Counted from the first letter of the stretch, positions 57,965 to 58,711 are shown. The stretch is DNA of 64,000 bases from Holosporaceae bacterium UBA7879 (GCA_002500565.1 DLRV01000011.1:42019-106018); one strand, 5' to 3'. Numbers and translations are program-made. The notes: generated from the letters alone by a model not told the origin.

Positions 57965-58711
57965 TTACTCAAACTTTTTTTCTTTAACCAATTCACTTTT
58001 TTGATTGTACTGTTGTAATAATACAACTTTTCCATCTCTATAAGTCGCGATTTCCATCACGGTGCCATTTTGATAAAACTTTTTTGCCTGCCCAACGATT
58101 TTCCCGTTTTCATACCTTTCCTGCTGCAGCAAGTCTCCAGATGGGTAATACGTCTCAGACACACCATCCATCACGCCATCTTTATACGTGCACTTCTTGA
58201 CCAGCTTGCCATTTTGATAGGCTTCAAACGGCCCTGACATGTCACCTTTATCATAGGCAATCACAGCAACTTTTTGGTCGTTTTTAAAAATTTGGCTTTG
58301 CCCGTGCTGCTTTCCTTGATCAAAATTGTATATCCCAACCAACTGACCATTCTCAAACTGCTTAGCCTCGCCTTGCATTTTTCCCTTTGCAAAAGCACCC
58401 ACAAACATCAGGTTGCCTTTATGGTCATAGGCCTCGGTCGGCCCCTCAAGCACCCCTTTTATGTAGGTCATTTTTTGTTTGATCTGTCCTGTTTCTGGGT
58501 CATAGATTGTATAAAGCCCCTCCTTCACATCCCCCACCATGGCAATGGTTTGGGTTTTCCGGCCTTTCATATCCTTAATGATTAAGGTATGCGTTCCTTC
58601 TACAGGTTCCGATTTTTTCTCAGCAACCTTAGGCTTAGGTGAATTTTTTTCCACTTTCTTTTTCTTGGACTGCGCGCGCATTTGCCGCAGAAGATCTGCA
58701 CTTATCAACAT
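57965..58711 (-). CDS. MORN-variant repeat protein (YwqK-family-like)
   Basis: 248 aa; Lys-rich N-terminus then about 6 degenerate ~23-aa repeats with G..G.....Y..G ([YF]xxGxxxGxxxxY/F) spacing; 8 bp downstream of vgrG. Confidence 0.55.
   Translation of the reverse strand: MLISADLLRQMRAQSKKKKVEKNSPKPKVAEKKSEPVEGTHTLIIKDMKGRKTQTIAMVGDVKEGLYTIYDPETGQIKQKMTYIKGVLEGPTEAYDHKGNLMFVGAFAKGKMQGEAKQFENGQLVGIYNFDQGKQHGQSQIFKNDQKVAVIAYDKGDMSGPFEAYQNGKLVKKCTYKDGVMDGVSETYYPSGDLLQQERYENGKIVGQAKKFYQNGTVMEIATYRDGKVVLLQQYNQKSELVKEKKFE

Follow-up and report, generated by a model that had tools for sequence, protein, structure and literature searches.

A MORN_2 repeat protein encoded directly after vgrG at the end of an H3-type T6SS operon of a Holosporaceae bacterium is a candidate TseF-like spike cargo

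The window, i.e. the whole stretch of 64,000 nucleotides from Holosporaceae bacterium UBA7879 that was analysed here, ends within a T6SS operon in which a MORN_2 (YwqK-type) repeat gene directly follows vgrG (Table 1). An initial annotation had described this gene as a 248-aa open reading frame immediately downstream of vgrG, with a poly-Lys N-terminus and no signal peptide, all of which holds. The frame starts with an ATG on the minus strand, and its product matches the Pfam family PF07661 (MORN_2) with an E-value of 4.2e-15 (54.5 bits; cut-off, 29.6). The upstream neighbour is a VgrG recognised by TIGR03361, with 8 bp between its stop codon and the ATG. Residues 16-19 of the protein read KKKK, and neither a signal peptide nor a transmembrane segment was detected in it, the highest 19-residue Kyte-Doolittle mean being 0.13. 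In Pfam and NCBIfam scans, it matched neither the adaptor families DUF4123/Tap, DUF1795/Eag and DUF2169 nor PAAR; besides MORN_2, the only match was a sub-threshold one to the MORN-type LIC20035 adhesin family, at 33 bits where 250 are required. The database record of an identical protein reads 'hypothetical protein' and belongs to a Tara Oceans MAG of a 'Rickettsiales bacterium'.

Table 1 Features at the T6SS end of the window. Positions are counted from the first nucleotide of the window.
Feature	Position	Strand	Description
Intrinsic-terminator-like hairpin with T-run	57124-57143	minus	First on that strand, after the OMP gene; transcription-unit end
Outer-membrane beta-barrel (OMP) gene	57177-57911	minus	244 aa; Pfam OMP_b-brl and OmpA_membrane, both just above cut-off
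MORN_2 (YwqK-type) repeat gene	57965-58711	minus	248 aa, ATG; positional equivalent of tseF
Nine beta-hairpin MORN_2 repeats (codons 40-248)	57968-58594	minus	Predicted by AF2, pLDDT 96-98
N-terminal extension (codons 1-39)	58595-58711	minus	Basic helix (aa 5-16) and Lys/Pro-rich linker, predicted by AF2
Spacer between vgrG stop and MORN_2 ATG	58712-58719	minus	8 bp; from the sequence
vgrG (TssI), short VgrG3 type	58720-60825	minus	TIGR03361, E 2e-152; Phage_GPD, Phage_base_V, Gp5
tssG	60822-61877	minus	NCBIfam TssG
tssF	61847-63649	minus	NCBIfam TssF
tssE	begins 63768, extends past the window edge	minus	

An orthologue encoded on contig L022 is 87% identical, and comparison of the two genes yields a dN/dS of 0.12. 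The open reading frame is thus a real gene rather than a chance ORF, and it is under purifying selection. For the same pair of contigs, dN/dS is 0.04 for VgrG, 0.055 for TssG and 0.018 for TssF; non-synonymous evolution of the MORN_2 gene is 2-6 times that of these core genes.

The structure was predicted with AF2 using a 46-sequence alignment, which resulted in a model with a pLDDT of 93 and a pTM of 0.80; prediction from the single sequence was poor (pLDDT 62). In this model, the repeat part (aa 40-248) folds into 18 strands forming nine hairpins of an elongated single-layer sheet. The previous count of about six repeats was accordingly too low, and 8-9 is the better figure. The preceding 39 residues have a pI of 10.1, and the linker (aa 17-39) is modelled with low confidence and as disordered. 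The motif I(S/T)xDLLxxxR in the N-terminal helix is conserved across the orthologue alignment and in L025. Furthermore, the extension is present in endosymbiont-type orthologues and absent from TseF of Pseudomonas aeruginosa. A Foldseek search of the PDB returned MORN1 of trypanosomes and apicomplexans (6t68, TM 0.55-0.66) and junctophilins, with local matches to other single-layer beta-sheets such as OspA and Rhs shells, and a PDB search with the sequence retrieved the MORN-like domain of SET7/9 and nothing else. The structural study of MORN1 describes protein-protein interaction and dimerisation and disputes membrane binding by MORN repeats (PMC7725318), which should therefore not be assumed here. 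Based on the model, the protein is predicted to be an all-repeat, elongated binding scaffold without a catalytic domain.

On the longer contig L002, the full operon has the order tssB-tssC-hcp-like-hcp-like-tssE-tssF-tssG-vgrG-MORN_2-OMP, in which tssB, tssC and the two hcp-like genes lie upstream of the window, and both flanks are occupied by housekeeping genes in convergent or divergent orientation. The MORN_2 gene is the last conserved gene of this H3-type T6SS operon. Among the scanned window ORFs of at least 120 aa, no match to tssJ, tssK, tssL, tssM, tssA or clpV was found. According to Pfam, the C-terminus of VgrG is a Gp5 beta-helix without a toxin domain or DUF2345, and the other neighbour of the MORN_2 gene encodes the OMP, in agreement with the earlier statement that no toxin domain is adjacent. 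The tandem Hcp-like genes between tssC and tssE (L002:3269-3781, 170 aa; L002:3808-4467, 219 aa) are both very divergent, and Pfam T6SS_HCP stays below threshold with an E-value of about 0.005. The inner tube (Hcp/TssD) has been reported missing in papers on the T6SS of Holosporales; it may be too divergent to recognise rather than missing.

The initial annotation had also assigned the OMP gene to the same operon and considered this an unusual feature for a T6SS locus. Co-transcription with the MORN_2 gene is indeed probable, because the gap comprises 53 nt and the first terminator-like hairpin follows only after the OMP gene. The start is most likely the ATG at 57911 and not the TTG at 57926, as this ATG is preceded by GGAGAG and gives rise to a putative Sec signal peptide (MKKLNLFFAGAAALSATSAFA). 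However, an OMP homologue was found neither in the sister contig L022, of which the VgrG is 92% identical, nor in any other vgrG-MORN_2 locus. The OMP is a lineage-specific, incidental passenger outside the conserved module, and the significance attached to its presence does not stand. By the same distribution, we rejected the OMP as an analogue of a TseF receptor (TseF binds OprF) or as a substitute for TssJ. Together with a ChaB-domain gene (56589-56822) and a gene for a 99-aa coiled-coil protein (56284-56583), the OMP gene forms a block between the MORN_2 gene and a gene for a 969-aa oxidoreductase. This block is missing from L022:8858-8874, where the flanking genes are 15 bp apart, and represents an insertion or deletion in one lineage.

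We then compared vgrG-MORN_2 loci across genomes. A word-index homologue search with the window protein alone gave weak generic matches and nothing more; orthologues were collected from an exhaustive phmmer run, a profile search and a second sampling route that started from VgrG homologues and is without bias towards MORN. The phmmer run returned 21,446 MORN_2 representatives at E<=1e-3, with similarity mostly arising from the repeats alone. A MORN_2 gene that starts at most 15 bp from the vgrG stop codon or overlaps it was found in 11 independent loci. These are the window/L002, L022/L023, L024, L025/L026, L004, L006/L007, L008 and L016 as well as three loci of named organisms (P. aeruginosa, L017/L013; Azospirillum, L018; Paraburkholderia, L019). 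They span Alpha-, Beta- and Gammaproteobacteria with VgrG identities down to 32%, and the spacers outside the window measure 0, 1, 3, 4, 5, 8, 8, 10 or 15 bp, or are replaced by an 8-bp overlap. The partnership with the upstream VgrG, initially suggested by position, is strongly supported by this conserved, closely spaced synteny.

The orthologues in L022, L024, L025, L004 and L006 all directly follow vgrG. A MORN_2 orthologue was present in 4/4 loci found via VgrG homologues (92, 59, 45 and 43% identical). On the contigs with 92, 59 and 45% VgrG identity, the MORN_2 genes encode 248-252 aa, start 4-15 bp after vgrG, and specify proteins with 87, 39 and 36% identity to the window protein that have the N-terminal I(S/T)xDLL helix in common. 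All of the five best profile matches were vgrG-adjacent, compared with none of four weaker MORN_2 matches that were checked. P0074 (L004, 36% identical) is encoded 5 bp after vgrG in the order clpV-vgrG-MORN, and P0158 (L006, 30% identical) 0 bp after vgrG in a cluster of the form tssC...tssG...vgrG-MORN; these two and the window protein are reciprocal best matches over their full length. P0160 (L008) follows an orphan vgrG by 3 bp, and the gene for P0159 (L016) overlaps vgrG by 8 bp and precedes a PAAR-like DUF4280 gene.

The vgrG-linked MORN_2 proteins range from 178 to 458 aa. The N-terminal extension is lacking in TseF and P0159, comprises 39 aa in the window protein and reaches 235 aa in P0160 (L008:2593-3969), where it is acidic and belongs to no recognisable family; the partner VgrG of P0160 has 827 aa and a lengthened beta-helix. 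The N-terminus of these proteins appears to be modular. The pair closes the operon in L008, L022 and L024 with nothing co-directional after it, and the genes that follow elsewhere are mutually unrelated, encoding a 668-aa protein (L004), small membrane proteins (L006, L025) or DUF4280 (L016, L019). The 668-aa protein (L004:9690-11696) has an N-terminal hydrophobic segment and a weak match to TIR_2 (E 0.006), and is a possible effector of that T6SS. MORN_2 genes on plasmids of Martelella and Rhodovulum were excluded from the module, as the preceding protein of about 717 aa is not a VgrG. The conserved trio found there (L020:3485-7823 and L021:3209-6977, respectively), consisting of this hypothetical protein, a MORN_2 gene overlapping by 4 bp and a DUF805 protein, may be another MORN_2 module.

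The MORN_2 partner studied in P. aeruginosa, TseF (PA2374), is a 178-aa protein with MORN motifs; its gene is the neighbour of vgrG3 at the far end of the H3-T6SS locus (PMC5379069). GST-TseF retains VgrG3 and VgrG1b (Lin et al. 2017, Nat Commun, PMC5379069). TseF was found in supernatants and OMVs, binds PQS and engages FptA and OprF; its release is strongly reduced, not abolished, in clpV3, hsiB3-C3 and hcp3 mutants, and the authors describe it as 'probably a substrate' (PMC5379069). The 'TseF family' of that study consists of MORN_2 proteins that are mostly vgrG-adjacent (PMC5379069). In P. fluorescens F113, the TseF homologue Tfe5 is located downstream of vgrG3 (PMC7970981), and the vgrG-MORN_2-DUF4280 genes of Paraburkholderia phymatum have been published as Bphy_5985-5987 (PMC8356804). 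We located tseF in metagenome contigs via published deletion primers and obtained the whole H3 locus from the P. aeruginosa record L017; the high-GC contig L012, also retrieved in the primer scan, is unrelated and was discarded as a chance match.

In P. aeruginosa, the right arm of the H3 locus has the order tssB-tssC-hcp-tssE-tssF-tssG-clpV-x-x-vgrG3-tseF with 10 bp between vgrG3 and tseF. The window operon is collinear with this arm, at identities of 58% for TssB, 58% for TssC, 29% for TssF, 25% for TssG and 37% for VgrG (full length). Azospirillum brasilense p1 and Paraburkholderia phymatum pBPHY01 carry vgrG-MORN_2 together with DUF4280. The window protein and TseF are 26-29% identical over about 140 residues with several registers scoring alike (BLASTP E 1e-15), and hhalign of the window family against TseF gives a probability of 98.9%. 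With queries from the window family, BLAST places TseF 92nd-125th among MORN_2 proteins; with TseF as the query, the window protein comes 90th. The several registers and the low mutual rank indicate that this similarity is repeat-driven, and membership in the TseF family rests on the repeat family, the position and the H3-type machine, not on demonstrable orthology.

With regard to the organism itself, the window encodes a TLC ATP/ADP translocase (29379-30914, minus strand, E 3e-156), a protein typical of intracellular bacteria that live as energy parasites. A candidate eukaryote-like effector of 472 aa (44959-46377, minus strand) shows weak F-box and BspA-type LRR matches. The regions 10820-20610, 25113-29197 and 38214-44536 contain about a dozen large ORFs of 276-1067 aa without a Pfam match, e.g. 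11888-14395 (835 aa), 25113-28316 (1067 aa) and 39961-42138 (725 aa), which may code for lineage-specific secreted proteins. Judged from its gene content, the bacterium looks intracellular because of the translocase, the F-box/LRR protein and the many large Pfam-less ORFs. Furthermore, scattered phage/GTA-like genes were observed in 21046-24141 and 47188-49481, namely for a lysozyme (21046-21555), a portal protein (22918-24141), a head-tail connector (47188-47796) and a fused prohead protease-major capsid protein (47856-49481). A Cys-rich 99-aa protein (49732-50031, plus strand) has a hydrophobic N-terminus and a weak match to MVL (mannan-binding lectin).

The gene pair is also part of the literature on intracellular Alphaproteobacteria. 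According to Midha et al. 2021 (PMC8163844), [ywqK-vgrG] is one of the conserved blocks in which Bodocaedibacteraceae, Paracaedibacteraceae and Caedimonadaceae carry their T6SS genes, and in all diplonemid endosymbionts a YwqK-family protein is encoded beside VgrG (George et al. 2019/2020, bioRxiv 10.1101/719211). This block is conserved even in highly reduced genomes of Holosporales endosymbionts (PMC8163844, 10.1101/719211). The T6SS is regarded as the principal means by which Holosporales-type endosymbionts interact with their hosts, and according to a recent review none of its substrates has been demonstrated in this group (PMC11909080).

The reading that we favour, with a probability of about 0.6 and by analogy with TseF, is that the window protein would be a TseF-like, spike-associated T6SS cargo with a binding or tethering function outside the cell. 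As proposed on the basis of this analogy, it would bind the VgrG trimer non-covalently and be expelled with the spike upon contraction of the sheath. Outside the bacterium, it would act by binding or tethering rather than as an enzyme. The candidate target would most likely be a host-cell protein or membrane component, because the organism looks intracellular (TLC translocase, F-box/LRR protein) and shows no PQS context. The lineage-specific polybasic N-terminal helix and linker could constitute an added targeting or docking element. The initial annotation had listed cargo, adaptor and immunity protein and regarded the role as open. Of these, cargo gains from the TseF precedent (PMC5379069), adaptor persists as a rival and immunity is unsupported, as no toxin gene is adjacent; the role is less open than assumed, as vgrG-MORN_2 pairs are already in the literature (PMC8163844, 10.1101/719211, PMC8356804, PMC7970981). 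The faster evolution and the variable N-termini suit a cargo better than a core structural part, and no other candidate cargo is adjacent in L008, L022 and L024, because the pair ends the operon there. Against this stands that the TseF precedent is itself soft, given the wording of its authors and a secretion that was reduced and not abolished, and that a non-secreted adaptor or a structural accessory would account just as well for the tight coupling to vgrG and the persistence in reduced genomes.

Tap/TEC (DUF4123), DUF2169 and Eag proteins are known T6SS adaptors or chaperones, and the position directly after vgrG is the classic one for an adaptor. The window protein might thus be non-secreted, bind the VgrG tip and recruit or stabilise an effector encoded elsewhere or downstream. 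The variable genes behind MORN_2 in L004, L006, L025, L016 and L019 are in line with such a function, as is the description of MORN repeats as protein-protein interaction modules (PMC7725318). Nevertheless, we consider an adaptor unlikely, since the known adaptor families are unmatched in Pfam, no co-directional gene follows the pair in L008, L022 and L024, and TseF, the one studied family member, occurs in supernatants and OMVs (PMC5379069).

It may also be speculated, with rather little confidence, that the MORN_2 partner is an ancestral, near-universal accessory of H3-type T6SS spikes that persists even in highly reduced endosymbiont genomes and attaches the spike, or what it carries, to a membrane or protein of the target. 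The N-extended form, found in intracellular Holosporales-like bacteria without a nearby PAAR gene, would then be the principal host-directed substrate or tip factor, and the PQS/OMV iron uptake of TseF a Pseudomonas-specific specialisation; our low confidence refers to these propositions taken jointly.

A purely structural accessory of H3-type spikes, i.e. a tip cap, PAAR substitute or assembly factor for firing, seems improbable. The retention next to vgrG in all Holosporales-type loci including the strongly reduced genomes (PMC8163844, 10.1101/719211) would suit such a part, as would the very tight or overlapping spacing. By tblastn, DUF4280 was absent from the window, L002, L004, L006 and L008, and the window, L004, L006 and L008 contain no PAAR gene either, so that a substitute for PAAR could be envisaged in these loci. 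However, DUF4280, where present, co-occurs with the MORN_2 gene instead of being replaced by it, and the elongated nine-hairpin sheet is unlike the PAAR cone. The 2-6 times faster non-synonymous evolution relative to TssF, TssG and VgrG and the wide variation in length and termini also speak against a core component.

Bacillus subtilis YwqK (COG2849) is the immunity partner of the LXG toxin YwqJ, and database annotation names MORN_2/COG2849 relatives 'YwqK antitoxin' accordingly. An immunity protein or antitoxin that protects the producer from a T6SS toxin, as proposed initially from this family relationship, is nevertheless disfavoured and in our view highly improbable for the window gene. 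None of the 11 loci has an adjacent toxin gene, no toxin domain follows the Gp5 beta-helix with which the VgrGs terminate, and the pairing is conserved with VgrG rather than with a toxin. Both George et al. (10.1101/719211) and Midha et al. (PMC8163844) use the immunity or antitoxin label, apparently from annotation alone, and TseF behaves as a secreted protein (PMC5379069). MORN or YwqK is not mentioned in Zhang et al. 2012 or in the V. coralliilyticus paper. The label 'YwqK antitoxin/immunity' is probably wrong for the vgrG-MORN_2 module.

The synteny effectively refutes the view that the protein is a generic repeat protein unrelated to the T6SS, with incidental vgrG adjacency: MORN_2 proteins are abundant and many occur in non-T6SS contexts, but homologues are not confined to these, the adjacency recurs in 11 loci of three proteobacterial classes despite VgrG identities down to 32%, and loci chosen via VgrG carry MORN_2 every time.

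Among non-core genes, only the MORN_2 gene behind vgrG shows a consistent link to Holosporales-type T6SSs. Linking its product to TseF, which has been studied by experiment, rather than to a 'YwqK antitoxin' provides a concrete first candidate substrate and would correct a propagated annotation. The window gene by itself adds no new principle.

Compared with known systems, the window protein resembles TseF in organisation. Both consist of MORN_2 repeats only (TseF, E 3.6e-16) without a signal peptide or an enzymatic domain, and in both H3-type operons the terminal genes are a short VgrG3-type vgrG and, a few bp behind it, the MORN_2 gene. In contrast to TseF, the window protein has three extra hairpins and the 39-aa basic N-terminal extension, and it contains no Trp, whereas TseF has five and a Trp-rich C-terminal tail (RWRWWW). 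In Pseudomonas, Paraburkholderia, Azospirillum and L016, the module comes with a PAAR-like DUF4280 gene, a companion that is frequent but not strictly defining. As the window organism looks intracellular and shows no PQS or pyochelin context, unlike the host of TseF, a function in OMVs and iron like that of TseF is improbable here.

With eukaryotic MORN1 (T. brucei, Toxoplasma) and junctophilins, the window protein has the elongated single-layer beta-hairpin fold in common (Foldseek TM 0.5-0.66), but these belong to Pfam MORN and not to MORN_2 (PF07661), and identity is 15-18%. B. subtilis YwqK has the MORN_2 repeat family in common with the window protein, and the annotation 'YwqK family antitoxin' derives from this; unlike YwqK, the window protein is without a cognate toxin and has VgrG as its conserved partner. 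The [ywqK-vgrG] module of Holosporales resembles the window in the gene pair itself, the low-GC intracellular-type alphaproteobacterial background with a TLC translocase, the similar T6SS gene arrangement and an Hcp that is hard to recognise. It differs in the antitoxin/immunity label of the respective papers, which the present evidence does not support. Compared by published description, not by sequence, the window gene most likely belongs to this ywqK family. The vgrG-MORN_2/YwqK module has previously been described in Pseudomonas (TseF), in Paraburkholderia and in endosymbionts of the Holosporales, and the window contains a new, divergent member of it.
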